A stretch of 17,536 nucleotides of DNA from a virus, in the UHGV virus genome UHGV-1676750; one strand, given 5' to 3'. The translations under genes and the position numbers were made by a program. The first letter of the stretch is position 1. Each line of letters starts with the position of its first letter. This document shows positions 846-16,020 of this stretch, piece after piece. The notes below the pieces were generated by a model. That model did no database searches. It was not told the DNA's origin and saw nothing but the letters and a program-made list of their open reading frames with translations.

Positions 846-856
846 TTGTCGTCCCC

Positions 857-885
857 TTGACAATACAAAATTAATGTGATATACT
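857..885 (+). promoter_or_regulatory. Sigma-A/sigma-70-like promoter: TTGACA (857-862), 17-nt spacer, TATACT (880-885)
   Basis: Exact -35 consensus, 17-nt spacer and a 5/6 match to the -10 consensus, read directly. Lies in the intergenic region between ORF1 and the GIY-YIG gene. Confidence 0.5.
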
Positions 886-925
886 ATAGACGCAAGATAG
901 ATGAGGAGTAATTAACCTCATTAAT

Positions 926-969
926 AAGGCTAGGGGCCTCCACCCCTGGCCTTCTTGTAGTTATTTTTT
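926..969 (+). terminator. GC-rich hairpin followed by a U-rich tract; candidate intrinsic terminator or attenuator between the promoter and the GIY-YIG gene
   Basis: AAGGCTAGGGG (926-936) pairs with CCCCTGGCCTT (943-953): 11-bp stem with one G-U wobble, 6-nt loop. A T-rich run follows (TTATTTTTT, 961-969) but is displaced about 8 nt from the stem. Confidence 0.4.
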
Positions 970-1005
970 AATGTGGAGGAAATGGTGTTATGGAGGTAAC
1001 GAAAA

Positions 1006-1833
1006 ATGGAATATAGAACTGCGGACGCTCTTTGTGGTGTTTACAAAATTACTAACATTATTAATTGGAAAGTTTATATTGGACAGAGTATTAACATAAT
1101 GGTTAGATGGAAAGAACATGTTAATGCTTTAAATAGAAATGGTAGTAGTTGTACACTTTTACAACGGGCATGGAATAAATATGGGCAAGAGAATTTTTCT
1201 TTTGAGATTTTAGAGTTATGTTCTGAAGATATGTTGGACGAGATTGAAGTAAAATATATAGAAATATATGGTGCGTGCAACCCGAAGAAGGGTTATAATA
1301 TCGAATCTGGTGGTAATAAAAATAAGCATTTGTCAGAGGAGACAAAACAAAAACTTAGAGAAGCACATCTTGGGAAAACTATGTCTCCAGAAACCTCACA
1401 GAAAATGTCTAAATCTAGAACTGGAGAGGGCAATGGTATGTATGGTCGGCACCACACCGAAGAGGCAAAAAAGAAAATGAGTGAAGCGAAGAAAGGCAGA
1501 CCTGGACATCCGTGTAGCGATTATGCGAGGGAACGTGCCAGACAAGCTAATTTGGGCAAGATAGTATCCGAAAGAACTTGTCAAAAGCTTAGTGAATCTC
1601 ATAAGGGGAAACCTGCACATAATAAAATTATAATACCGGTATATTGTGTTGAGTTAGATAAAGTTTTTGAATGCCCATCTGATGCAGCGAAAGATCTTAA
1701 CATTAAGAACGCAACTAACATAATGGATTGTTGTAAACACATTCGCAAGACTTGTGGTGGCTATCATTGGGAGTTTGCGTATGTAATTTACCCAGATCTA
1801 TATCCCGCAATACCTTTGACAACACAAAATTAA
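1006..1833 (+). CDS. GIY-YIG family homing endonuclease with NUMOD3-type repeats and a C-terminal NUMOD1-like DNA-binding domain (I-TevI-like, free-standing)
   Basis: N-terminal GVYKITN…KVYIGQS…RWKEH matches the GIY-YIG motif, followed by YNIESGG. Four tandem [ST]-x-E-[TA]-x-x-K-[MIL]-S-x-[AS] repeats (HLSEETKQKLREAHLGK, SPETSQKMSKSRTG, HTEEAKKKMSEAKKGR, SERTCQKLSESHKGK) fit NUMOD3. The C-terminus IPVYCVELDKVFECPSDAAKDL…GGYHWEF fits the DNA-binding tail of phage homing endonucleases. RBS GGAGGT at 991-996. Confidence 0.85.
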   Translation: MEYRTADALCGVYKITNIINWKVYIGQSINIMVRWKEHVNALNRNGSSCTLLQRAWNKYGQENFSFEILELCSEDMLDEIEVKYIEIYGACNPKKGYNIESGGNKNKHLSEETKQKLREAHLGKTMSPETSQKMSKSRTGEGNGMYGRHHTEEAKKKMSEAKKGRPGHPCSDYARERARQANLGKIVSERTCQKLSESHKGKPAHNKIIIPVYCVELDKVFECPSDAAKDLNIKNATNIMDCCKHIRKTCGGYHWEFAYVIYPDLYPAIPLTTQN

Positions 1834-1862
1834 TGAACTACTGCCATGTAGTTCATTTTTTA
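1833..1862 (+). terminator. Rho-independent terminator downstream of the GIY-YIG gene
   Basis: Perfect 10-bp inverted repeat AATGAACTAC (1833-1842) / GTAGTTCATT (1849-1858) with a 6-nt loop, running straight into T6 (1857-1862). Confidence 0.7.
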
Positions 1863-1893
1863 TACCCAAAATTAACTAAAGGAGGTGCTTCCG

Positions 1894-2271
1894 ATGGCGA
1901 CAAATAACAAAACTTGTCTTTGCTGTAGTACACGTTATAGTTATTGCCCCTCATGTTCGAACGCAGATCGTCTTGCTCCTTCATGGAAGGCTGAATTTTG
2001 TTCCGAAACCTGCAAAGACCTATGGCTCACATGTACTCGCTATAATATGGGCAGACACACCAAGCAAGAAGCACAAGATATTATTAAATCTCTCCCACTC
2101 AAACCTGCTGTCGAATACGTAGCATGCGTACAAAGGGACCTGGGGGTTATCCTAAAAGAAGATCCCAAACCAAAGCGCAATAAGCGCAAACCCATCGACG
2201 ATTTTGCGGACATTACCCCCGCTCTCGTCAATGAGCCAACGAGTGAAGTAGTTTTACAAGAAAATGAGTAA
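1894..2271 (+). CDS. Hypothetical Cys-rich (putative zinc-binding) small protein with a basic KPKRNKRKP patch
   Basis: ATG at 1894 preceded by AAGGAGG (1879-1885); the ORF-track start at 1885 is a GTG inside the RBS. Eight Cys in the first 47 residues (CLCC…CPSC…C…C…C). Confidence 0.7.
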   Translation: MATNNKTCLCCSTRYSYCPSCSNADRLAPSWKAEFCSETCKDLWLTCTRYNMGRHTKQEAQDIIKSLPLKPAVEYVACVQRDLGVILKEDPKPKRNKRKPIDDFADITPALVNEPTSEVVLQENE

Positions 2272-2586: not shown

Positions 2587-2808
2587 ATGGACGCATCCAT
2601 ACTAGAAACACTTGCTCCAATCATCGGTGATACGCCCGTATCTGTGCAAATTAGCGCAGCACTTGAGCCAATGGCCTCAAAAAACTACGTGCACGATAAC
2701 TACGTCACACTCGATGATTTTGAAGAATTAAAAAGACAATTTGAAGCGCTAGTCGGAGATACGTCTGTTTCTGAACAAATTTCTACGGCGCTTAAAAATA
2801 ATAAATAA
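2587..2808 (+). CDS. Small fibre-motif protein (73 aa) carrying two copies of the VGDT-x-V-x-x-QI module
   Basis: ATG at 2587 with GAGGTG at 2575-2580; the track start at 2578 is a GTG inside the RBS. Contains IGDTPVSVQISAAL and VGDTSVSEQISTAL. Confidence 0.65.
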   Translation: MDASILETLAPIIGDTPVSVQISAALEPMASKNYVHDNYVTLDDFEELKRQFEALVGDTSVSEQISTALKNNK

Positions 2809-2835
2809 AACAATTCGTAAAAGGATGTGATAAAA

Positions 2836-3201
2836 TTGAGCACAAAAAAACTGCAAGTTTTAGATTATAAAATTAAGCAGGCTGAAAACGCTGATACTGT
2901 AGATAATAAGCACGCTTCTGACTTCGCATCCGCTACTGATATGAGCACGGCGCAAAATAATATTAGCGACCTTCAGGCAAAAGTCGGAGATACGCCTGTA
3001 TCTACGCAAATTACAAATGCTATCTCTTCAAACCGTATAGTTTACGTTCAAAACGAAGAGCCAGTTGATGCACCACCTGGATCGCTATGGGTGAATTTAG
3101 AATTGCAAAATACGGATGACTTTGTATCTGTTTATAAAGAAATTTTAATATTTGGAATACAATACGTTGCGCTTGTTGATAGTGATACTTTGATAATATG
3201 A
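2836..3201 (+). CDS. Short tail-fibre-like protein with one VGDT module and an EP…PPGSLW motif
   Basis: Probable TTG start at 2836, 10 nt after AAGGA (2821-2825); the GTG at 2827 is too close to the RBS. Contains KVGDTPVSTQITNAI and EEPVDAPPGSLWVNLE. Confidence 0.6.
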   Translation: MSTKKLQVLDYKIKQAENADTVDNKHASDFASATDMSTAQNNISDLQAKVGDTPVSTQITNAISSNRIVYVQNEEPVDAPPGSLWVNLELQNTDDFVSVYKEILIFGIQYVALVDSDTLII

Positions 3202-5261: not shown

Positions 5262-6152
5262 ATGGGAAGTGCTAGTGTATCCGCACCCACAACAGAGGGG
5301 ACTGTATTTGCATCAATAAGCTGGGATACTACTCCAACAGTATCTATAAGTATAACAGGCGGATATGGAATATCATGGAGAATTAGAGGTCGCGGAACAG
5401 ATACATATGTATATTATGGTCCAACAACTTCTTCGTCTGGTACGTTTACGGCAAGTTATGGAACAAGTTATGTACTTCAAGCAGTTAGCGACGGAGGATG
5501 GAATAATACTGGTGATAGTGTATTTACCGTCACGCAAGATGTTCACACTCACTCTTATTCTTTTTATACCACTGTTGACCCAACTTGTACTGAACAAGGT
5601 TATGAGATTTGGCGTTGTAGTGGTTGTGGTGATTTAGATTATAGAAATTATACTAACGCCCTTGGACATAACACTGTCAATACTGTTGTTACCCCGACCT
5701 GTACCGAACAAGGCTATACAACTCACATTTGCTCTCGTTGCGGAGCCACCACAAGCGCTAATGATAATTATACAAGTGCATTGGGCCACAATGATGCTAA
5801 TACTGTTGTTGCTCCAACTTGCACGGAACAAGGCTACACTAAGCATATTTGTTCCCGTTGTGGAATCACTATAAGTGCTAATGATAATTACATAAATGCT
5901 CTTGGACATGCGTGGGACGATGGTGAAATTATACTAGAACCAACTTATACCGAAGATGGAATTATAAAATATTTGTGTACAAGGTGCGGCGAAACTCGTA
6001 CAGAAGCTATAGCTAAAAAAGTTGGTTCGGTGCGTATTTATAACGGTTCAACTTTTGATATTTATAGTATCTATGTACGTGGAAAAGCGCAATCATGGGA
6101 TTTATATGTGCCGTACATATATAATGGATCAAGTTGGGATTTATATAGTTAG
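5262..6152 (+). CDS. Protein with four tandem ~40-aa Cys-rich (zinc-ribbon-like) repeats; putative binding or adhesin-type structural protein
   Basis: Repeats of H-x(9-11)-PTCTEQGY-x(4)-C-[ST]-x-CG-x(10-12)-ALG; the last copy is GHAWDDGEIILEPTYTEDGIIKYLCTRCGETRTEAI. Weak RBS; a 17-codon uORF (5209-5262) overlaps the start. Confidence 0.65.
   Translation: MGSASVSAPTTEGTVFASISWDTTPTVSISITGGYGISWRIRGRGTDTYVYYGPTTSSSGTFTASYGTSYVLQAVSDGGWNNTGDSVFTVTQDVHTHSYSFYTTVDPTCTEQGYEIWRCSGCGDLDYRNYTNALGHNTVNTVVTPTCTEQGYTTHICSRCGATTSANDNYTSALGHNDANTVVAPTCTEQGYTKHICSRCGITISANDNYINALGHAWDDGEIILEPTYTEDGIIKYLCTRCGETRTEAIAKKVGSVRIYNGSTFDIYSIYVRGKAQSWDLYVPYIYNGSSWDLYS
5544..6011 (+). repeat. Four tandem ~120-bp coding repeats (Cys-rich module) inside the 5262-6152 CDS
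   Basis: Units at roughly 5544-5666, 5667-5786, 5787-5906 and 5907-6011. Units 2 and 3 are clearly similar at nucleotide level (shared …CAAGGCTA… and …GCTAATGATAATTA… stretches). Confidence 0.7.
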
Positions 6153-6163
6153 GAGGTGAATAG

Positions 6164-6880
6164 ATGCCTCAGAACATCTTTAAAATCTATGATGGTAGAA
6201 CGAACTTTTGGCAATGGGACACTAAGCAGAAATTGATTGTTTTAGATGATCGTATTACAGAAGTTCGTTTTTCTAATAGAAATATGGAACACTCAAAACG
6301 TAGACCTGTCTACACGGACAATAATGGAGTTAGAATTTGTAATGTGCCTGATGTGCTCTTGCAACTTCCTAAGAATCTTATAGCGTATGCGTGTATTAAG
6401 CAAGACGATGGGACTTGTAGCACAGTAAAAGCGGTCAAGTTTGCAGTTGCTAGACAGCCAATTCCTGCGGATTATGTGTGTGAGCAAGATGCAGTTATTG
6501 AAAACATTCTCGCAAAGATCGAGATGCTTGAGAATTTACTCAAAGAAGTTGAGTCTGGATCAAAAGAAATGAAGAAGTTCACTAGCATGGTGGAAGCTGC
6601 ACAATGGGCCAAAGAAAATGGCAACGCTGGTGACATTGTTGTCATCAAACTTGATGTAGGTTGGGTGCCTCATGTTATTGAAGACGGCAAGAGTCTAAGC
6701 GCTATTTGCAACTGTGATGGCGATGAGATTGTTCTTCAGCTCGACGGAGATGACCCCGACGGCATTAATGAAGACGAAGAAGATATGGTTCTGTATTATG
6801 ACGGTAATTATATTGACGAAAGTAACGATGTAATTCAGTATTTTGATGGCGGTTCCGCATCTGGTTTACAAACGGGGTGA
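6164..6880 (+). CDS. Hypothetical phage protein (238 aa) with an acidic C-terminus
   Basis: ATG at 6164 with AGGAGGTGA at 6151-6159. No named motif. Confidence 0.7.
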   Translation: MPQNIFKIYDGRTNFWQWDTKQKLIVLDDRITEVRFSNRNMEHSKRRPVYTDNNGVRICNVPDVLLQLPKNLIAYACIKQDDGTCSTVKAVKFAVARQPIPADYVCEQDAVIENILAKIEMLENLLKEVESGSKEMKKFTSMVEAAQWAKENGNAGDIVVIKLDVGWVPHVIEDGKSLSAICNCDGDEIVLQLDGDDPDGINEDEEDMVLYYDGNYIDESNDVIQYFDGGSASGLQTG

Positions 6881-6884
6881 GAGA

Positions 6885-7244
6885 ATGGCCGATATAAGAA
6901 AAGTAAAAACTGTATTTCAAATCAGGCGCTCGACGACTGCGGAATGGGAAGCGAATAAAGATGCAATTCCTGATGCCGGAGAGCCCTGTTTTGATTTAGA
7001 CTTTGGTATATTAAAAATTGGTGATGGAAAGACCGCTTATAAAGACCTCAAGATTATTGGTGCTGGCGCTTCAATATCTGACGATGGTCTTTATTTAATT
7101 GTTGATAATTTGCAGAAAGATATCGATGAATTAAAGATCCGCATTGAAAATATTTCTGTTGAAGATCAAATTAATGATGCTATGAGCGATATTGTGGATG
7201 ACTCAGAATTACAGCAAACTCTGGATTCTGTGTTAAATAATTAA
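6885..7244 (+). CDS. Short fibre paralogue: HylP-like N-terminal attachment domain plus a short helical tail (possibly a truncated or minimal fibre)
   Basis: MADIRKVKTVFQIRRSTTAEWEANKDAIPDAGEPCFDLDFGILKIGDGKTAYKDLKIIG matches the conserved N-terminus of Gram-positive phage fibre/hyaluronidase (HylP) proteins: FQ/K-R-R…AEW…GE…D…KIGDG…Y…L. Confidence 0.7.
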   Translation: MADIRKVKTVFQIRRSTTAEWEANKDAIPDAGEPCFDLDFGILKIGDGKTAYKDLKIIGAGASISDDGLYLIVDNLQKDIDELKIRIENISVEDQINDAMSDIVDDSELQQTLDSVLNN

Positions 7245-7263
7245 GTTAAAGGAAGTGATGAAA

Positions 7264-8679
7264 ATGGCAATTAAAAAAATCAAGACATTGTTCCAACTCC
7301 GCAGGGGAACCACTGCCGAATGGGAACTCAATAAATCCGTAGTTCCCGCCGCTGGTGAACCGTGTTTTGATCTAGACCTTGGTACACTCAAAATTGGCGA
7401 CGGCGTTAAAACCTATGAGCAATTAGATGTAATTGGCGGCGGCAATGTAGCGCTTTCTGCCGATGGCAAGTCTATCATTTTGGATGACGGCATTTTTAAG
7501 CTTGCTGGTTTTGCCGATGCTGAAACTGGTGCTCAGCCTCGCAAGAACGCCGACGGCAATATTGAGTGGGTTGTACCTTCTAGCGAAACTCTTGATGGTC
7601 TACAGACAATTGTCGCTGGTTTACAAACTGACGTTACTGGATTGCAAACTAGCGTTGCTAGTATTCAGGAGGTTCTAGCTCCATCCGATGAAGGTGCAAT
7701 GACTCTACTAGAGAGAGTTGCCGCAATTGAGGGTAAGGTTGGCGAAAGCTCTGTTGATGAAAAAATTAACACTGCCTTTGACGACTTTATGGCAAAAGTT
7801 TCTGATGATGGCATCGTCAATACTGTCAAAGAACTAATTGACTATGTAGCAGACCATGCGCCCGAGGCCGCTCAGATGGCCGCTGATATTACTAGTCTGC
7901 AAGAACTTGTTGGTAACACCTCTGTTGATGCCCAAATTCTAGCTGCCATTACTACAAGCGAAGCAAAAACCGCTGCTCTTTACAAGAAAGTAAAATATGA
8001 GATTTCTTCTAAGCCCGCCGAAGCTTTAGTGGACTATAGAGAGAAAGAAATCAGAATTATGTGTCCCGCTGATACTCAATTTGAGCTTCAGAATGTTGGT
8101 CCTACTGGTGATTCTACTAGATACTATATTGGATTTAAGGCATATGCCCCTGATGGCGCTGTAAGCTTTAAGGAAGATACTAAGGCTACCATTGAAGATA
8201 CTACTATGTATTACTTTGAAGGCAATGATTTTGCTGGCACTGATGCTTATGGTCGTAAGTATAGTATTGTATGGCTACCTGTGGCAAAGCATAATGATGA
8301 TGATACTTGGACTTATTATGGTACTAATTCTAGTGCTGCCAAGTATATTGGCTGGTACTACTCTGTCGAGTGGTATGGTGCTAATGGTAAGGTTATTGCG
8401 TCTGATATCATTCGTATTAATCTAAGTAATGAGGCTTGCCATAATGTGGTTGAGCCTTATTTTATGGGCCAAGTTGTTAAGGGAGTTAGCGTTGGTGGAA
8501 CTCTGCTTGATTTGATTGACAATAAGGTTAATATTAATGCCAGTGATATTGTTAAAGGGTCTGATGAAATTGCGGTTGCTGAGGACGGGACTCTAAGCAT
8601 TGGCCAAATTAATGTGTCCAAGCTGGTGCAGGATGAAGGCTCCGAGCTAGTCTTTGATGGCGGCGGGGCTTCTAGATAA
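7264..8679 (+). CDS. Tail-fibre protein with a HylP-like N-terminal domain, GLQTxVx heptad repeats and VGxxSVD-x-x-I modules
   Basis: ATG at 7264, 8 nt after AAAGGAAG. N-terminus TLFQLRRGTTAEWELNKSVVPAAGEPCFDLDLGTLKIGDGVKTYEQL. Three 21-bp tandem heptad repeats at 7597-7659. Contains LVGNTSVDAQILAAI and KVGESSVDEKINTAF. Confidence 0.8.
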   Translation: MAIKKIKTLFQLRRGTTAEWELNKSVVPAAGEPCFDLDLGTLKIGDGVKTYEQLDVIGGGNVALSADGKSIILDDGIFKLAGFADAETGAQPRKNADGNIEWVVPSSETLDGLQTIVAGLQTDVTGLQTSVASIQEVLAPSDEGAMTLLERVAAIEGKVGESSVDEKINTAFDDFMAKVSDDGIVNTVKELIDYVADHAPEAAQMAADITSLQELVGNTSVDAQILAAITTSEAKTAALYKKVKYEISSKPAEALVDYREKEIRIMCPADTQFELQNVGPTGDSTRYYIGFKAYAPDGAVSFKEDTKATIEDTTMYYFEGNDFAGTDAYGRKYSIVWLPVAKHNDDDTWTYYGTNSSAAKYIGWYYSVEWYGANGKVIASDIIRINLSNEACHNVVEPYFMGQVVKGVSVGGTLLDLIDNKVNINASDIVKGSDEIAVAEDGTLSIGQINVSKLVQDEGSELVFDGGGASR

Positions 8680-8726
8680 CAACAAAAACTAAATAAAATT
8701 TTAATCATTAAAGGAGAAATGTAATC

Positions 8727-10664
8727 ATGGCTATTGAAAAAACACTTAATACTCGTCTGAAACTTCGTTACGATTCTCATGAGAATTGGCTTGCTAATGA
8801 TCCTACTCTGCTTGCAGGCGAAGTCGCTCTAAGTGCTGTATCTGTTAAGCAGGACGGCGTAGTTAACGAAGTCCCCAGCGTACTAATTAAAGTTGGCGAT
8901 GGCACTCATAAGTATTCCGAACTAGATTATGCTTACGCGAGGGCGGCAGATGTCATCGAGCAGGCTAAGAGTGCAGAAAAGCTAACCGATTTCATCAACA
9001 ATGTAATTGCTAGTGCTGGTATTGCCACTGACGAGGCTCTAACTACTCTAGCTGGTAAGGTTACTACTGCCGAAGGCAAGATCACTGCTCTAGAAGGTCT
9101 AGTTGGCGATACTGCCGTAGCCACTCAGATTCAGAATAAGATTGATGCTCTGAAACTATCCGATACCTATGCCGCAAAGTCTCACACTCATACTAAGTCT
9201 GAGATTACTGATTTTGCGCATACTCATGTTATTGGTGATGTAACTGGTTTAAGCGATTCTATTGCTGAAGCTAAGCAGACTGGCCTTGACGCAACTTCTG
9301 CTCTTAATACTTATAAGAATACTAATGATGCTGCTGTAAAGGCCAATACTGATGCAATTGCTGCTATTAACAACGCTGACACTGGTATTCTTGCTCAGGC
9401 TAAGACTTATGCTGACGGAAAGGATGCCGCTATTACCGCTGCTAAGAATGCTGCTGATGCTGCTCAGGCTGACGTTGACGCCCTAGAAGCTAAGGTCGGC
9501 ACTGTCCCTGCAGATACCACTGTTGTCCAGATGATTGCTGACGCCCAGGATGCTGCTACTTATGATGACACTGCTCTAAAGGGTCGTGTAAGCGCAAACG
9601 AGACTGCTATTAGCAAGCTAAATGGGCTTGTCGGTGACACCGCTGTCGCCACTCAGATTAGCACTGCTGTTTCCGATGCTAAGACTGAGCTAAAGGGTAG
9701 CGCTTCCGATACCGATGCTTCTGCTACTATTGCTGGCGCTAAGAAGTATGCTGACAAGCTAGATGCTGCTATGGATGCTCGTGTTGATGCTCTAGAGGCT
9801 GCTGTTGGCGAAGATGGTTCTGTTGCAGAGAAGATCACTGCCGCAGTTGAAGCTCTTGACGCTACCGTTGAGACCGCTGCAATCCCAGAAGGTCAGGACG
9901 GTATTTATGTAAAGGTTACCGAGGTTGATGGTAAGCTAACTGCTGTTGAGGCTACTATCGAAGTATCTAATGAGATTAATGCTGCTAAGTCCGAGCTTGA
10001 GGACAAGATTGGTACTGTTGCCGAGGGTAAGACTCTTGCTGGTCTAATCGCTGACAATGCTGCCGCTATTGAGGCTCATAAGACTGCGGTCGATGCTAAG
10101 GTAACCACTCTAATTGGTGCTGATACCGACAAATCCGTGCGTACTATTGCTAATGAGGAACTGGCTGCTCAGCTGATTCCTGAGAACGCTAAGGAATCTC
10201 TAAATACCCTACAGGAGATCGCTGCTTGGATTCAGGCTCACCCCGATGATGCCGCTACAATGAATACGGCCATTGCAAACCTAAAGGCGCTAGTTGGTGA
10301 CGAAAGTGTTAACGCTCAGATTAATACTGCCGTTGACAACCTAAAGAATAACGAGATTAAGAACGCAACTGATCGCATTGCAGATCTAGAGGCTGATACT
10401 CACACTCATGCCAACAAGGCCCTGCTCGATTCTTACACTCAGACCGAAGCTGACCTGGCTGACGCCGTTGCTAAGAAGCACGAGCACGCTAATGCTACCG
10501 AACTGGCCAAGTTCGTTGAGGGTGATAAGGATAAGCTAGATGCCGCCGTTCAGACTGTTACCGCTGGCACTGGCCTCACCGCAACTAAGACTGGTACTGA
10601 TGTAGCTATTGGATTTGACGATACTGTCACTTTCGTGTTTGACTGCGGCGATAGCTCCATCTAA
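8727..10664 (+). CDS. Long tail-fibre protein: HylP-like N-terminus (variant), Ala-rich helical shaft, three VGD-x-x-V-x-x-QI modules and HTH/HxH motifs
   Basis: ATG at 8727 with AAGGAG at 8711-8716. Contains LVGDTAVATQIQNKI, LVGDTAVATQISTAV, LVGDESVNAQINTAV, SHTHTKSEITDFAHTHV and DTHTHANKALLDSY. G+C is visibly higher than in flanking AT-rich genes. Confidence 0.8.
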   Translation: MAIEKTLNTRLKLRYDSHENWLANDPTLLAGEVALSAVSVKQDGVVNEVPSVLIKVGDGTHKYSELDYAYARAADVIEQAKSAEKLTDFINNVIASAGIATDEALTTLAGKVTTAEGKITALEGLVGDTAVATQIQNKIDALKLSDTYAAKSHTHTKSEITDFAHTHVIGDVTGLSDSIAEAKQTGLDATSALNTYKNTNDAAVKANTDAIAAINNADTGILAQAKTYADGKDAAITAAKNAADAAQADVDALEAKVGTVPADTTVVQMIADAQDAATYDDTALKGRVSANETAISKLNGLVGDTAVATQISTAVSDAKTELKGSASDTDASATIAGAKKYADKLDAAMDARVDALEAAVGEDGSVAEKITAAVEALDATVETAAIPEGQDGIYVKVTEVDGKLTAVEATIEVSNEINAAKSELEDKIGTVAEGKTLAGLIADNAAAIEAHKTAVDAKVTTLIGADTDKSVRTIANEELAAQLIPENAKESLNTLQEIAAWIQAHPDDAATMNTAIANLKALVGDESVNAQINTAVDNLKNNEIKNATDRIADLEADTHTHANKALLDSYTQTEADLADAVAKKHEHANATELAKFVEGDKDKLDAAVQTVTAGTGLTATKTGTDVAIGFDDTVTFVFDCGDSSI

Positions 10665-10686
10665 TTTTATAGCCTAATTCTAAGCA

Positions 10687-10717
10687 AGTTGCCTCGTTAT
10701 TCGTAACGGGGCAACTT
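10687..10717 (+). promoter_or_regulatory. Intergenic hairpin without a U-tract (RNA structure or processing/regulatory element)
   Basis: AAGTTGCCTCG (10687-10697) pairs with CGGGGCAACTT (10707-10717): 11-bp stem with one G-U wobble and a 10-nt loop. No T-run follows. Confidence 0.35.
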
Positions 10718-10743
10718 CAATAAGAAAGGATGAGGACTTCTTT

Positions 10744-11589
10744 ATGCCAAATAAAGAAATATTGGCCCGTGTCAAGCAAAAAAGAGATACGAGCGCTAAC
10801 TGGGAAGCACGAAATCCAGTTATTTTAAATGGCGAGATTATTCTCGTAGATACCAACGCAGGCGAGCTTAGAGCTAAAATTGGCGATGGTACAAAAACGT
10901 ATACTCAGCTACCTTTTTCAGATGAAGCTTTAAGAAGCCTCATCAATGCAAATAAGGTTACGGTAGATAGTGCGCTGTCTTCTACTAGTACCAATCCTGT
11001 ACAGAATAAAATTGTAAACGCCGCCATTAGCAACTTGAATACTTTGGTTGGTGATACCTCTATATCTTCTCAAATCGAAACTGCTGTTGCTTCAAAGCTC
11101 GACGCCGCAGATGCGACTTGGGCTCAGATTTATGATTCTGGCGCAATTACATCAGAAGTAAACTCTATTGCGGGCATTGATATCACAGGTTATAAGAGTC
11201 TAATGGTTGCTGTTAAGTGTGTAAACACTACGAATACCGCCAGTACAAGAGCTGGTGCGGTAATTTTTACTGGCAATAATCAAGACTATGCGTTTAATAA
11301 TCTTTTTAGCAACCTGATTAAAAATGGTACAACAACTTCCGGTGCTATGGCTAAATTTAAGATCGTGGACGGTTTTATTATTTGTGAGACTGCTATGAGA
11401 GCAATTACTGCGGATGGCATTTTATCTGATGCCGAAGGGGTAGGAATTGATACATTAGCCCCAGTAAGTAGTGGTCTTATTAAGTGTACAAACGCAGTCA
11501 CTACAATGGCCGTTTCTAGTGCGGCTCAGTCTGCAGACCATTACTACGGTGTTGGTAGTAGAGTTATTGTTTGGGGGTGTAAGGTATAA
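10744..11589 (+). CDS. Tail-fibre protein with a HylP-like N-terminal domain and one VGDT module
   Basis: N-terminus ILARVKQKRDTSANWEARNPVILNGEIILVDTNAGELRAKIGDGTKTYTQLPF. Contains LVGDTSISSQIETAVASKL. Confidence 0.8.
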   Translation: MPNKEILARVKQKRDTSANWEARNPVILNGEIILVDTNAGELRAKIGDGTKTYTQLPFSDEALRSLINANKVTVDSALSSTSTNPVQNKIVNAAISNLNTLVGDTSISSQIETAVASKLDAADATWAQIYDSGAITSEVNSIAGIDITGYKSLMVAVKCVNTTNTASTRAGAVIFTGNNQDYAFNNLFSNLIKNGTTTSGAMAKFKIVDGFIICETAMRAITADGILSDAEGVGIDTLAPVSSGLIKCTNAVTTMAVSSAAQSADHYYGVGSRVIVWGCKV

Positions 11590-11963: not shown

Positions 11964-12451
11964 TATATGGCAATGCAACTGGTGGCTTTGGAATGCCAAA
12001 GTCATTTGTTTTAACAGATGATAGTGGAAATGAAATGACAGGGGTTGTAACTGGTGAACAAGTTGTATTTACAGCTGGTTTAAGCGATATTAGAGCGGGT
12101 AAGGTTGCAGCCAATGCAGATGGTATTGTTACTGGTACGAAAGATATACCAGCATATCATACTACAGAAGGTCATCGAGTAATTACACCTGGAAGTGATT
12201 GTAAAATCTATATTCCTAATTACGAATATACCGGTTTACAAGCTATAGTTTGTTCATACAATACCTCTTTAGATGATAGTGTTGCCGCTAATCAAGTTGC
12301 CATTAAAGGCAATTTATATAATGTACAATCTGTAGACATATTATCTATAATTAGTATAGATAATACAGATCAGTGTATTAATTTAGGGATTACAAACACA
12401 ACTGATAATTTATTAATTATTAGATATTTTAGTTATAAGGAGATTTTATGA
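11960..12451 (+). CDS. Hypothetical protein (163 aa), Gly/Thr-rich N-terminus
   Basis: ATGA overlap with the upstream gene; AGGAGGT at 11944-11950. AT-rich (about 22% G+C counted for 12301-12360). Confidence 0.7.
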   Translation: MIYGNATGGFGMPKSFVLTDDSGNEMTGVVTGEQVVFTAGLSDIRAGKVAANADGIVTGTKDIPAYHTTEGHRVITPGSDCKIYIPNYEYTGLQAIVCSYNTSLDDSVAANQVAIKGNLYNVQSVDILSIISIDNTDQCINLGITNTTDNLLIIRYFSYKEIL

Positions 12452-12690
12452 TGGAAACGAGACGTTATGCATATAATTTTGCAGAAATTGATAATGCCAC
12501 TAATATGTGTATTGGTGTTATAACTACTACAGATCCAAACACAGAAGGTCCAACTGGTGGTGGAACAACTTTTGTTGCAATTCCAGTATATGATGAGAAT
12601 TATTCTTTAAAATATTACAATTGGGATAATGGTAAATTTTATTATGACTCTGCGTATACACAGGAGTACATTTCTCCATTACTACAATAA
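12448..12690 (+). CDS. Hypothetical small protein (80 aa)
   Basis: ATGA overlap with the upstream gene (translational coupling). No named motif. Confidence 0.6.
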   Translation: MMETRRYAYNFAEIDNATNMCIGVITTTDPNTEGPTGGGTTFVAIPVYDENYSLKYYNWDNGKFYYDSAYTQEYISPLLQ

Positions 12691-12712
12691 TTAAACAAAG
12701 GGGCGACGGATT

Positions 12713-12883
12713 ATGAATAAATATTTCTATTGTTATAGCTATCCATTAAAAGAATTTTTCAAAAAAAACGGCTTAAGTTACATTACCGCCGCTACGAATC
12801 ATTCAACAAATAAAACGTATTGGTTGTTTGAAGGATCTGAAAAATTAAATATGTTATTACAAAAATGGCGTTTAAATAAATAA
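12713..12883 (+). CDS. Unannotated small ORF (56 aa), hypothetical; absent from the ORF track because it is under 60 aa
   Basis: ATG at 12713 preceded by AAAGGGG. Translates to MNKYFYCYSYPLKEFFKKNGLSYITAATNHSTNKTYWLFEGSEKLNMLLQKWRLNK. Contains an A8 run at 12761-12768. The stop codon is embedded in the hairpin at 12862-12893. Confidence 0.4.
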   Translation: MNKYFYCYSYPLKEFFKKNGLSYITAATNHSTNKTYWLFEGSEKLNMLLQKWRLNK

Positions 12884-12900
12884 ACGTCATTTTCTATTTT
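12862..12900 (+). terminator. Candidate AT-rich intrinsic terminator
   Basis: AAAATGGCGTTT (12862-12873) pairs with AAACGTCATTTT (12882-12893): 12-bp stem with one G-U wobble and an 8-nt loop, followed by CTATTTT. The stem is AT-rich, hence modest stability. Confidence 0.4.
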
Positions 12901-12928
12901 ACAAATGATGTTTTGGAGGTAACTAAAG

Positions 12929-14266
12929 ATGAAGAAGTTGACGCATGAAGAATTTATTGAGAAAGTAACGAAACTCAACGAACATGTTGCAAATGGTGAG
13001 ATAGAAATATTAAGTCAGTATATAAACCAAAGAACTAAAATTAAATGTAAATGTGCCATACATAATACTATATGGGAGAGATCGGTACAAAGCCTTTACG
13101 AAAATAGTGGTTGTGAAGATTGTAAATATGAATTAAGTGGAAGAAAAAGACGGTTTTCACATGAAGAATTTGTTGAAAAGATAAAGGTTTTAAATGATGA
13201 AATTATAGTTTTGGGACATTATACAACGATGAATAAATCAATTGAATTTCAATGTAAATTTGGTCATATATGGACAGCCAAGCCTTATAGCATTATCAAT
13301 GGGCATCAATGTCCATATTGTGCTGGGCAAAAACCTATAATTGGGAATAATGACTTATGGACAACAAGACCAGACGTTGCAAGTTTATTAAAAAATCGTG
13401 ATGACGGATATGGTTTGATGGAATTTAGTCAGCGTAAAGTAATATTTATTTGTCCAACATGCGGTAACGAAATCATAAAATCAGTTCAACGTGTATCAAT
13501 AGATGGGCTTGTTTGCCAAAGATGTTCTGATGGTGTATCATATCCGAATAAATTTGCAAGAGCATTTTTAAATCAACTACTTGGTAATAATTTTAAATGT
13601 GAGTATCAACCTGATTGGGCCAAACCATATTATTATGATAATTATTTTGAATATGGTAATAAGAAATATATTTTGGAGATGGATGGCAGTTTTCATTATA
13701 TTTCAAGACAGTTGACCAAACAGTCTCTTGATGAACGAAAAAGGATTGATGCATTAAAAGATAAACTTGCTGAGCAACATAATATTCGTGTTATTCGTAT
13801 AGAGTGTATAAAATCTAATTGTAATTACATAAAGAATAACATTTTACAATCCGAGTTGAGTTTAGTTTTTAATTTATCTAAGATTAATTGGGATTTATGC
13901 GACCAAATGGCGCAAAGAAGTTTGGTTAAAGATGTTTGTAATTTATATATGAACGGAATAAAAGATTTGCATAAAATAGCAGAAATATTGCATATTAGCA
14001 AAAGTACGGTATATGTATATTTGGTTAGAGGTTCTAAGTTTGGATGGTGTGATTACGATGGGAAGAATGCTCATTACTTGAAAATTTCTATTCCAATAAT
14101 TGTACTTGATGAAAATAACAATGCTATACATAAGTTTGATAGTATTAGTGCGTGCAAAGAAGAGATGAAAAAAATGTACGGATATTCATTTGATAGAAAT
14201 ACTTTGAAAAAAGCTTGTGAGTATTCTATTTCATATCATGGATTTAACTTTAAATATGCGTATTAA
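12929..14266 (+). CDS. Multi-domain homing-endonuclease-like protein: tandem zinc-ribbon modules, a Vsr/DUF559-like PD-(D/E)xK nuclease core, a helix-turn-helix and a NUMOD1-like C-terminal DNA-binding domain
   Basis: Two ~60-aa repeats ([TS]HEEF[IV]EK…LN…C-x-x-H…W…G-x-x-C-x-x-C) and a third CPTCG…CQRCS module. KKYILEMDGSFHYI…DERKRIDALKDKLAEQHNIRVIRIE resembles the DUF559/Vsr-like endonuclease motif. KIAEILHISKSTVYVYL is HTH-like. The C-terminus IPIIVLDENNNAIHKFDSISACKEEM…YHGFNFKY parallels the C-terminus of the GIY-YIG protein. Very AT-rich. RBS GGAGGT at 12915-12920. Confidence 0.65.
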   Translation: MKKLTHEEFIEKVTKLNEHVANGEIEILSQYINQRTKIKCKCAIHNTIWERSVQSLYENSGCEDCKYELSGRKRRFSHEEFVEKIKVLNDEIIVLGHYTTMNKSIEFQCKFGHIWTAKPYSIINGHQCPYCAGQKPIIGNNDLWTTRPDVASLLKNRDDGYGLMEFSQRKVIFICPTCGNEIIKSVQRVSIDGLVCQRCSDGVSYPNKFARAFLNQLLGNNFKCEYQPDWAKPYYYDNYFEYGNKKYILEMDGSFHYISRQLTKQSLDERKRIDALKDKLAEQHNIRVIRIECIKSNCNYIKNNILQSELSLVFNLSKINWDLCDQMAQRSLVKDVCNLYMNGIKDLHKIAEILHISKSTVYVYLVRGSKFGWCDYDGKNAHYLKISIPIIVLDENNNAIHKFDSISACKEEMKKMYGYSFDRNTLKKACEYSISYHGFNFKYAY

Positions 14267-14336
14267 CAATACAAAATTAATGTTTAAAGTAATTAGTGAA
14301 ATAATAAAGTCTAAAATACTAAGGAGGAGTTTATAT

Positions 14337-15557
14337 ATGTCTAACCCCAATTTCAATCCTACGTATAGCTCGAACTTAATTTGGAGAGATGAAGACGACA
14401 CTCGTTGTATTACTGATGACCTAGATAATATCGAATCCGACATCACTGCACTCGAAACAGGCAAGGCCGACACTAACCATACACATACCGGATATGCTAC
14501 TACAGATCACACTCATACAGGCTACGCCGCAGCAGATCATACCCACACTGGCTATGCGGCGGCTGCAGACGTAACTACACTACAAAATTTGGTTGGAGAC
14601 ACTAGTGTATCTTCTCAGATCAGTACGGCTATTGCGGGCAAGGTTGATGCTGTGGAAGGTAAAGGCTTGTCTACCAATGACTATACGACAGCCGAGAAGA
14701 ATAAGCTTACTGGAATTGATACAGGAGCTAACAATTATGTGCTTCCAACTGCAAGCAGCACTACTCTTGGCGGTATTAAAACTGGGGATAACATTACTAA
14801 TTCGTCTGGTACGATTAGTCTAACAAAAAGCAATGTCACGTCAGCTTTAGGATATACTCCATTTGGCAGTAGTACGTTGTCAATGGCCAATGGTGGTACT
14901 GGCAGCGCTCAGGTTGTTAATGCTCCAAAGAATGCCATATTGAAGAAGGCAAACGATGGGAACTATGTGTGGTATACTCAGACAAAAAGTGGGGCTTTCT
15001 ACGCTACTGCAACAGATGGAGTTCCGAAATTCGGTGTACTGCCCAAGGCATTAGGTGGCACAGGTGCGGATTTCAGTAATATTCCAGCTAATGCTATTAT
15101 TCGTAATTCTGGTTCTGGCGGTAGTGACTTGTACTATTTTGCAACTGGCAATGGGGCATGCTATGCCACATCAGCTAATGGGTATCCGACTTTTGGTACA
15201 TTGCCCGTAGCGCAAGGTGGCACTGGCGAAACTACTGCTTGGACAAATGGTACAGTTACGAGTTTGAATAGTACTACTATTACATCATACCAATTTGCTG
15301 TTTTCCCCTATTTAAATAAGGCATTTATTAGGCTTAATGTGCTATTAGGTAGTGCTTTAGATGCTGACGAAGCTAGATATATAGTAATGCCGTCAACTGT
15401 TGCAACTGCACATACTGCTTTGTCTTGCTTTAATATTGCTGGATATGATATTCATTGTGGTATGGCTAGCGATAGTGGCATTTATGTAATTAATTGTGGT
15501 ACTGCTTCAATGCCCAATACTGTACGTCTTTATATTGCGGGATGGTATTCAATCTAA
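14337..15557 (+). CDS. Tail-fibre protein with an HTHTGYA triple repeat, one VGDT module and repeated GGTG motifs
   Basis: ATG at 14337 with AAGGAGG at 14321-14327; the track ORF from 14217 overlaps the upstream gene and lacks an RBS. Contains NHTHTGYATTDHTHTGYAAADHTHTGYAAA, LVGDTSVSSQISTAIAGKV, and three L-x-x-x-GGTG motifs (MANGGTGSA, PKALGGTGAD, PVAQGGTGET). Confidence 0.8.
   Translation: MSNPNFNPTYSSNLIWRDEDDTRCITDDLDNIESDITALETGKADTNHTHTGYATTDHTHTGYAAADHTHTGYAAAADVTTLQNLVGDTSVSSQISTAIAGKVDAVEGKGLSTNDYTTAEKNKLTGIDTGANNYVLPTASSTTLGGIKTGDNITNSSGTISLTKSNVTSALGYTPFGSSTLSMANGGTGSAQVVNAPKNAILKKANDGNYVWYTQTKSGAFYATATDGVPKFGVLPKALGGTGADFSNIPANAIIRNSGSGGSDLYYFATGNGACYATSANGYPTFGTLPVAQGGTGETTAWTNGTVTSLNSTTITSYQFAVFPYLNKAFIRLNVLLGSALDADEARYIVMPSTVATAHTALSCFNIAGYDIHCGMASDSGIYVINCGTASMPNTVRLYIAGWYSI
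14475..14564 (+). repeat. Three tandem 30-bp coding repeats, each encoding [ND]HTHTGYA-x-x
   Basis: aaccatacacataccggatatgctactaca / gatcacactcatacaggctacgccgcagca / gatcatacccacactggctatgcggcggct. Confidence 0.75.
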
Positions 15558-15940: not shown

Positions 15941-16020
15941 TTATATATATGCACAACAGTGGGGCGCAGTGGTAACATTGTGCCCTATAGTTACAATACG
16001 AATAAAAGGAGGTATCAAAC

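Follow-up and report, generated by a model that had tools for sequence, protein, structure and literature searches.

The window analysed in this work, a stretch of 17,536 nucleotides from the virus genome UHGV-1676750, carries endonuclease genes at two sites. Site 1 is located between a virion gene (21-845) and a Zn-ribbon gene with its ATG at 1894 (window 846-1893), and holds homing endonuclease gene 1 (1006-1833, plus strand), the product of which was assigned to the GIY-YIG + NUMOD3 type by Pfam and PHROG matches. Site 2 is located between an ORF at 12448-12690 and a fibre gene, and holds cassette 2 (12713-14266, plus strand), which is composed of a small DUF5659 gene (12713-12883), a terminator-like hairpin (12862-12893), and endonuclease gene 2 (12929-14266), coding for a protein of the DUF4379 treble-clef type annotated as PHROG 'HNH endonuclease' (Pfam and PHROG matches). 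The two endonucleases, GIY-YIG + NUMOD3 and DUF4379 treble-clef, belong to unrelated families. The GC content of cassette 2 is 0.28-0.32, as compared to 0.40-0.45 in its flanks, and the GC-poor island (window 12300-14400) spans ORF 12448-12690, the DUF5659 gene, and endonuclease gene 2. Elsewhere in the window, a tandem 120-nt duplication with 73% identity is present at 5646-5885, inside the gene 5262-6152, a 42-nt coding repeat (L..LVGDTSV..QI) occurs in at least 6 fibre-like genes (2740-3012, 7143-7950, 9090-11088, and 14580-14621), and the precomputed annotation contains Mtd_N (PF18454) for the products of 6846-7244 and 7264-8679.

Both sites contain copies of a 21-nt element, referred to below as the box. 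The original prediction of a match in 20 of 21 positions between 857-877 (ttgacaatacaaaattaatgt) and 14263-14283 (ttaacaatacaaaattaatgt) was confirmed by direct reading, the two copies differing at one base, and a third copy was found at 1816-1836 (TTGACAACACAAAATTAATGA), at the stop codon of the first endonuclease gene. A pattern search of the window with up to 3 mismatches returned 3 matches, as compared to 0.00 expected from 200 dinucleotide-preserving shuffles, and a chance repeat was rejected on these numbers. The copy at 857-877 (plus strand) starts 11 nt after the stop of ORF 21-845, with no hairpin ahead of it, and is of the box-in-spacer type (class A), since it consists of TTGACA (857-862) and the first 15 nt of a 17-nt spacer. 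The copy at 1816-1836 (plus strand) has no -10 element; it encodes the last five codons and the stop of the GIY-YIG gene (L-T-T-Q-N-stop), and a terminator hairpin (1832-1857) takes its 5' arm from the end of the box. Together with the T-run, this terminator-like structure covers 1832-1863 (plus strand), with a 10-bp stem followed by TTTTT, and separates the box from the SD of the Zn-ribbon gene. The copies at 857 and 1816 flank the GIY-YIG gene, and endonuclease gene 1 is therefore bracketed by two copies. The copy at 14263-14283 (plus strand), a promoterless box (TTAACAATACAAAATTAATGT), contains the TAA that serves as the stop codon of endonuclease gene 2 and ends 53 nt ahead of the ATG of the fibre gene at 14337; the distances originally given for the copies at 857 and 14263 were found to be right.

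A possible degenerate box (ACAATA-ATTAAacaa, 12683-12697, plus strand), equivalent to a 4-nt deletion, was noticed by eye only and is of low confidence; it overlaps the stop of ORF 12448-12690, is located ahead of the DUF5659 SD, at the left edge of cassette 2, and was not recovered by the mismatch searches of the window. Sequences that resemble the box only weakly (at least 5 mismatches in 17, or 10/14 over the core) are also present at 1864-1876, 8679-8695, and 15993-16009, just 5' of the SDs of the genes at 1894, 8727, and 16021, and could be either decayed boxes or chance matches.

The copy at 857 had been said to contain a -35 box, and this was borne out by the promoter scan, in which the site at 857-885 (TTGACA, 17 nt, and TATACT with a TG extension) scored 11/12 and was the top sigma-70-type site of the window. 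The -35 hexamer TTGACA matches at 6/6 positions and is identical in 7 orthologues, and the -10 hexamer TATACT (880-885), at a distance of 17 nt, matches at 5/6. The -10 hexamer and the TG extension (877-878) occupy 877-885 on the plus strand, a segment that reads TGnTATAAT or TATACT in the orthologues. Over the 7 orthologous loci of site 1, the 20-nt box is 99% identical and the TGn + -10 segment 86% identical, whereas the flanks (40 nt upstream and 20 nt downstream) are only 27-46% identical. Transcription is predicted to start near 890-892. The copy at 857 would accordingly represent a near-perfect sigma-A promoter, expected to fire with the host sigma-A RNA polymerase and to drive a structured leader RNA followed by the GIY-YIG gene. 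The copies at 1816 and 14263 are of the promoterless form. At 1816, the sequence found 17 nt after the -35 is TACTGC, which lies inside the terminator stem and is no usable -10. At 14263, TTAACA stands at the -35 position and TAAAGT (4/6) follows at 16 nt, in agreement with the original view that this copy lacks a good -10, and nothing better is present in the orthologues in loci L114 and L105. The 14263 copy was dismissed as the fibre-gene promoter, since neither L114 nor L105 shows a conserved -10. The proposal that the repeat is a shared promoter element hence stands for the copy at 857, but not for those at 1816 and 14263.

The leader RNA at 891-959 (plus strand) was identified with RNAalifold from the 7 orthologues and is Y-shaped, with 28 pairs, 22 of which show compensatory changes. 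It is formed by an outer stem (891-897/953-959) and the hairpins P2 (900-906/916-922) and P3 (927-935/944-952), the latter of which exposes the loop GCCUCCAC (936-943), and it is followed by a T-run (964-969). The terminator scan also flagged 926-953 as terminator-like, and no match to an Rfam family was obtained at the gathering threshold anywhere in the window. Two SD-like boxes complementary to the P3 loop are located at 973-996 (plus strand), of which UGGAGG (991-996) is the true SD of the GIY-YIG gene and GUGGAGG (973-979) a decoy. The loop type and both downstream boxes change in concert in 7/7 orthologues; relatives with the loop GCCUCUCAY carry (A)UGAGAG and GAGAGG or GUGAG instead. 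Judging from these sequences, the segment 891-996 looks like an anti-SD riboregulator of endonuclease translation. Phage T4 possesses intergenic endonuclease genes (seg, mob, and I-TevI) that have their own promoter, an RNA structure limiting translation, and presence/absence polymorphism. Cassette 1, with its promoter, putative anti-SD leader, and GIY-YIG gene, matches these T4 cassettes; the likeness concerns the cassette and not the box, and the promoter of cassette 1 is the standard box promoter of the phage clade described below.

An exact IMG/VR search for TTRACAAYACAAAATTAATG resulted in 97 loci, mostly on contigs of 150-170 kb, several of which had up to seven copies, and relaxed matching identified about 190-210 distinct contexts in related phages, with counts of unique contexts from 192 to 208. 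The box consensus is tTAACA[A/G]TACAAAATTAATG, with a length of 17-20 nt, and is strand-specific. MAG contigs with the promoter form were assigned to Acetatifactor, Faecalimonas (a contig of 162,567 nt), and Clostridium. Neither megablast of the whole window nor tblastn of ORF 21-845 gave a match among GenBank phages, and the DNA polymerase III alpha of the clade is at most 32-34% identical to any GenBank phage record. The clade is one of large uncultured phages of gut Clostridia, about 155-170 kb in size, that are known from metagenomes alone. The GIY-YIG protein was found in the public assemblies on one contig of 9,972 nt, the start of which is that of the window, and a search with the Zn-ribbon protein gave one locus that, together with one blastn match, provided two alleles in which site 1 is empty. 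No paper was found in a full-text literature search for the box sequence, and we know of no convincing match of the box to the 3' end of 16S rRNA or to known Bacillus regulator sites.

The box occurs in this clade in several forms. In the promoter form, found in 48 contexts, TTGACA, ATACAAAATTAATG, and TGnTATAAT follow one another, and 46 of the 48 have TTGACA at the -35 position. In the SD form, which accounts for 103 of 208 contexts, an SD is located within 16 nt of the box end, and in 57 cases within 0-3 nt; TTAACA, ATAACA, and GAAACA dominate at the -35 position here, and TTGACA is almost never seen. In other contexts the box lies against a terminator stem (at least 14 cases, including the copy at 1816), a tRNA, or an intron core. 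Boxes and local genes have the same orientation in 141 contexts and opposite orientations in 3, and 50 are ambiguous. The promoterless form adjoins RBSs, terminators, or a tRNA, and its two built-in TAAs often stop the upstream gene: among 90 upstream ORFs, the stop codon is the TAA of tTAAca in 27 and that of atTAAtg in 17, which corresponds to 44/90 ending inside the box.

The genes that follow the box code mostly for functions in replication and nucleotide metabolism and include those for DNA polymerase III alpha, RecJ, ThyX, dCMP deaminase, RNA ligase, Dcm, and MetK, as well as AAA_24, a Thoeris inhibitor, and tRNAs. Endonucleases make up about 8 of the 94 genes after boxes and 6 of the 42 ORFs that end in a box, the remainder being diverse. 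A LAGLIDADG domain and a reverse transcriptase (Pfam) are also present among the products of genes after boxes, and the DUF5659 homologues in L063 each have a box ahead of them. A box was associated with 2/103 genes in structural loci, 2/23 in the window, and 112/768 overall, where frequencies outside the loci anchored on structural proteins are biased upward, since the loci were gathered by motif search. The scarcity of the box in structural regions explains why the copies in the window appear only beside endonuclease cassettes: the three copies mark two early-type endonuclease cassettes in a late region, the label 'early' being inferred from gene content and promoter type only. The survey of copies and their flanks in related phages thus found them scattered in front of unrelated genes, an outcome that had been named at the outset as speaking against the endonuclease-junction reading.

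The box is also associated with noncoding elements. A complete box promoter is found in ORF-less group I introns (Rfam RF00028), in the terminal loop immediately ahead of the GGUUCAACGACU core, where an intron endonuclease gene would normally be located; such introns include those at L089 6766-7104 and L063 568-876, as well as those in L003, L010, L037, L066, L082, and L084. In the intron loop of L098/L032 the box is kept (TTAACAGCACAAAATTAATG), and the -35 G and the -10 are lost. Directly after the box promoters of L025, L032, L039, L048, and L073, a small-RNA-like element of ~65 nt (AAAAGUGGGACAGC ... CCACUUUUAUU) was seen, for which Rfam gave no match at the gathering threshold. Another example is that of the tRNA arrays in L002 (6547-8861) and L038 (296-523), where a box comes after the sigma-A promoter from which the genes are read; 1-2 nt separate it from the first tRNA in L038.

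A simple rule emerges from the strong promoters of the clade. A set of 84 unique near-consensus TG-extended sigma-A promoters was compiled from the clade loci, and the similarity of their spacers to the box was found to be bimodal, with 36 promoters having the box as spacer. None of these 36 has a second box downstream, as compared to 38 of the other 48 (Fisher p = 6e-15), in which the box starts past the -10 at a distance of either 5-6 nt (17 cases) or 17-23 nt (19 cases); the box has a background rate of 0.025 per 60 nt. Altogether, 74 of the 84 strong promoters carry exactly one box, either as part of the spacer or no more than about 30 nt past the -10, and three fixed registers can be distinguished, namely, as -35 and spacer (with G at position 3), right after the -10, or ~20 nt after it. 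The presence of one box in 74/84 promoters speaks for a function of the box as DNA at the promoter, and the tight spacing between box and SD, together with the many promoterless intercistronic copies, points instead to a function within the transcribed RNA. Neither body of evidence is in doubt, and no mechanism known so far accounts for the two together.

The comparison of alleles at both sites bears on the relation between the box and the endonuclease genes. Site 1 is an endonuclease hot spot, with at least 5 different ORFs of two families across phages and two phages in which it is empty. It is filled in seven loci (the window, L019, L021, L037, L054, L082, and L084), all of which have a box promoter, the conserved leader, and an endonuclease ORF, the type of which differs: the window, L021, and L037 have GIY-YIG, and L019, L054, L082, and L084 have four DUF4379 architectures. 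A 3' box follows the endonuclease ORF in all filled loci but L082 and is degenerate in L084. Homologues of the 1816 box follow different endonuclease ORFs at this same site in L019, L021, L037, and L054, and the gene 1 orthologues of L021 and L037 likewise end within the box (..LTI-stop and ..LTIQN-stop). The empty alleles in L089 (10640-10760) and L098 (about 2890-3000) consist of stop, terminator, SD, and gene, and have neither promoter, box, nor endonuclease gene. The empty alleles of site 1 thus have no copy and the filled ones two. The adjacent Zn-ribbon protein is mosaic when the window (1894-2271) and L098 (3001-3348) are compared, since the last ~34 residues are identical and the N-terminal two thirds strongly diverged, which points to a recombination joint within the gene. 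Endonuclease ORFs of unrelated families were also seen to have a near-identical RBS region (TGTTWTGGAGGTAAC.AA..ATG) in common (window 980-1008 and 12903-12931, with 86% identity, L082 about 5365-5395, and L084 about 2495-2525), which suggests either ORF-precise replacement or a leader that moved along with the gene.

At site 2, the cassette is absent in L099-L105 and L114, where both flanking genes are adjacent. Of these endonuclease-free relatives, L114 (4905-4924) and L105 (4930-4949) keep the 14263-type box in place, and the identity of the promoterless box at this site is 0.85, as compared to 0.27-0.38 in its flanks. Since L114 and L105 have the box without the endonuclease, the copy at 14263 is considered resident and not created by insertion, and the GC-poor cassette 2 appears to have been inserted just 5' of this resident box, borrowing the box TAA as its stop codon. 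The empty alleles of site 2 (L114 and L105) therefore have one copy, and the filled allele of the window has one good and one doubtful copy.

Among the predicted genes of the clade (loci L001-L114), 48 of 755 are endonuclease-like (GIY-YIG, DUF4379/HNH, and NUMOD3/I-HmuI-like). A box upstream was found for 8 of these 48 and for 102 of the 707 other genes, a difference that is not significant, and a box at the 3' end for 10/48 and 73/707, respectively (p = 0.03, with orthologues all counted). Endonuclease genes are thus weakly enriched beside the box, about twofold at the 3' end. As to the original suggestion of an endonuclease target or junction sequence, what remains is that all three copies in the window are located at cassette edges and that the empty alleles of site 1 are boxless; the link across the clade is weak, the ~190-210 contexts are mostly in front of unrelated genes, and the box pre-exists in L114 and L105.

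Taken together, it is likely that the box is a generic directional element of this phage clade, that the copy at 857 functions as a host-type promoter, that those at 1816 and 14263 are promoterless, and that a role as an endonuclease junction is essentially refuted. The reading of the box as a generic regulatory motif is well supported. The mechanisms by which it may act, as discussed in the following, are partly compatible with each other.

The mechanism given the most weight here, although at less than even odds, is that the box is recognized at promoters, in an operator-like manner, by a phage-encoded sequence-specific factor that would act on DNA at or beside RNA polymerase. Binding of this factor would cause an operator-like temporal control of early transcription units, and the promoterless copies would either be extra sites for the factor or act via their RNA copy. 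As is typical of an operator, a repeated conserved element overlaps the RNA-polymerase footprint of many promoters (74/84). A comparable case is the SPBRE of the Bacillus subtilis prophage SPbeta, a 15-bp element repeated at early promoters that was first predicted from sequence and later shown to be the binding site of the master repressor MrpR (YopR) (PMC10516654). Both are short conserved elements repeated at promoters of a large Firmicute phage, and the SPBRE, compared with the box by its published description, is the best functional analogy for the boxes that overlap promoters. However, the SPBRE has about ten sites, all in promoter regions, whereas the box has far more copies, three registers, and many promoterless representatives. 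The dyad symmetry of the box is weak (ACAaTA-N6-TAaTGT). An operator function leaves unexplained why half of the boxes adjoin an SD with no promoter near, why the distance from box to SD is tight and that from -10 to box variable, or why boxes lie against terminator stems in at least 14 contexts.

Several of these features would be accounted for by a signal at the RNA level, and this alternative is possible, although doubtful. The box would then be a standard 5' leader at the RBS, serving as a translational enhancer or repressor or as an endonucleolytic processing site, and its use within promoters would be secondary. The 103 of 208 contexts with an SD up to 16 nt from the box end, 57 of them at 0-3 nt, agree with such a signal, as do the intercistronic boxes in which the upstream ORF stops (27 and 17 of 90), the nearly strict co-orientation with genes, the third-register promoters, which vary in the distance from -10 to box while that from box to SD is tight, and the boxes ahead of tRNA genes in L038 and L002. 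However, in 36-48 box-in-spacer promoters the box is outside its own transcript, yet it is 99% conserved among orthologues, and these promoters never have a second, transcribed box (0/36, as compared to 38/48). In addition, the copy at 14263 and its orthologues are 45-60 nt away from an SD, and the boxes against terminators are left unexplained. A/U-rich elements at or over the translation start of many early mRNAs are known from the T7 gene 10 leader enhancer and the T4 RegA operators. The box resembles these elements in being A/U-rich and immediately 5' of the translation start region. They are, however, short or loosely conserved and always transcribed, whereas the box has 17 nearly invariant nt and a quarter of its copies are in promoter spacers, outside the transcript.

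A further reading is rather unlikely. The box would be an autonomous gene-junction signal, of a kind not known from double-stranded DNA phages, that ends the upstream frame, with TAA in two frames, and starts the next expression unit, either as the promoter of a phage-specified polymerase or by RNA processing together with a translation signal. It would be embedded in host-type promoters such that every unit has exactly one copy, and endonuclease cassettes and group I introns would carry it in order to be expressed wherever they are inserted.

That the box serves by itself as a promoter for a phage RNA polymerase or sigma factor, with host sigma-A promoters nested or in tandem, is considered unlikely. 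Points in favour are the length of the box (17-20 nt), its high conservation and directionality, its position immediately 5' of genes, tRNAs, and small RNAs, the conservation of its promoterless copies, and the rule of one box per host promoter, which would fit a dual early and later expression. T7-like phages possess 23-bp promoters (class II/III) for their single-subunit RNA polymerase, which the box resembles in length, directionality, conservation, and position just 5' of genes. Unlike T7 promoters, it overlaps canonical sigma-A promoters, is often placed against terminators, and avoids structural genes; the latter, the usual clients of phage polymerases, almost never have a box. Moreover, no gene for a phage RNA polymerase or sigma factor was seen in the loci, which cover less than 10% of each genome, at least 14 boxes run straight into a terminator hairpin, and the leader would often consist of the SD alone.

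A role as a recombination module is improbable to a similar degree. Identical copies would serve as crossover points for accessory or endonuclease cassettes, in a manner similar to the PeSL (promoter-early stem-loop) cassettes of T4-type phages, which flank insertions and replacements (PMC2839356, PMC4122927). Both cases involve repeated and conserved strong sigma-70-type promoters between the accessory genes of large lytic phages. Cassette 1 lies between two good copies and cassette 2 between a good and a possible degenerate one, a single copy is present at site 2 where the endonuclease is missing, and at least 5 endonuclease ORFs of two families occur between the same promoter and 3' box at site 1. 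However, PeSLs combine a promoter and a terminator hairpin at indel breakpoints, whereas a hairpin accompanies a third of the box promoters and most boxes are not promoters. An upstream hairpin (within 50 nt) was found at 12/36 box promoters and 13/48 other promoters, so that the idea of composite terminator-promoter units was not supported. Boxes as recombination breakpoints were not supported either, since homology-block ends (at least 88% identity) are not enriched at boxes, with 3/102 located within 25 nt of a box as compared to 2.4% at random, a comparison of limited power. Furthermore, the empty alleles of site 1 are without any copy, 20 bases are short for homologous exchange, and recombination would not alone account for purifying selection on the sequence. 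Finally, a target site or junction made or recognized by homing endonucleases is highly improbable: all three copies in the window touch endonuclease genes, five GIY-YIG ORFs end inside the box, and boxes are in twofold excess where endonuclease-like genes end, but about 90% of boxes are beside unrelated genes, the box is already at site 2 in endonuclease-free relatives and is common to endonucleases of unrelated families, and a nuclease that recognized the box would destroy its own genome by cutting it at more than 100 positions.

Nothing about the movement of endonuclease cassettes can be read from the repeat, which is the house regulatory motif of the phage. Repeated regulatory elements such as promoter families, SPBRE, and PeSL are already known in phages; what is unusual here are the three registers, the rule of one box per promoter, the abutment to the next functional element, and the built-in stop codons. 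The one-box-per-promoter rule in its three registers is a constraint on any mechanism proposed. The box provides a precise cis-element for an uncharacterized clade of gut-Clostridia phages that is unusually rich in endonuclease genes, and may be helpful, in the metagenomic contigs of this clade, as a practical marker to separate late structural genes from early-type modules and inserted cassettes. Should the box prove to signal gene starts autonomously or to be bound by a global regulator, the temporal programme of these phages would be defined by it.
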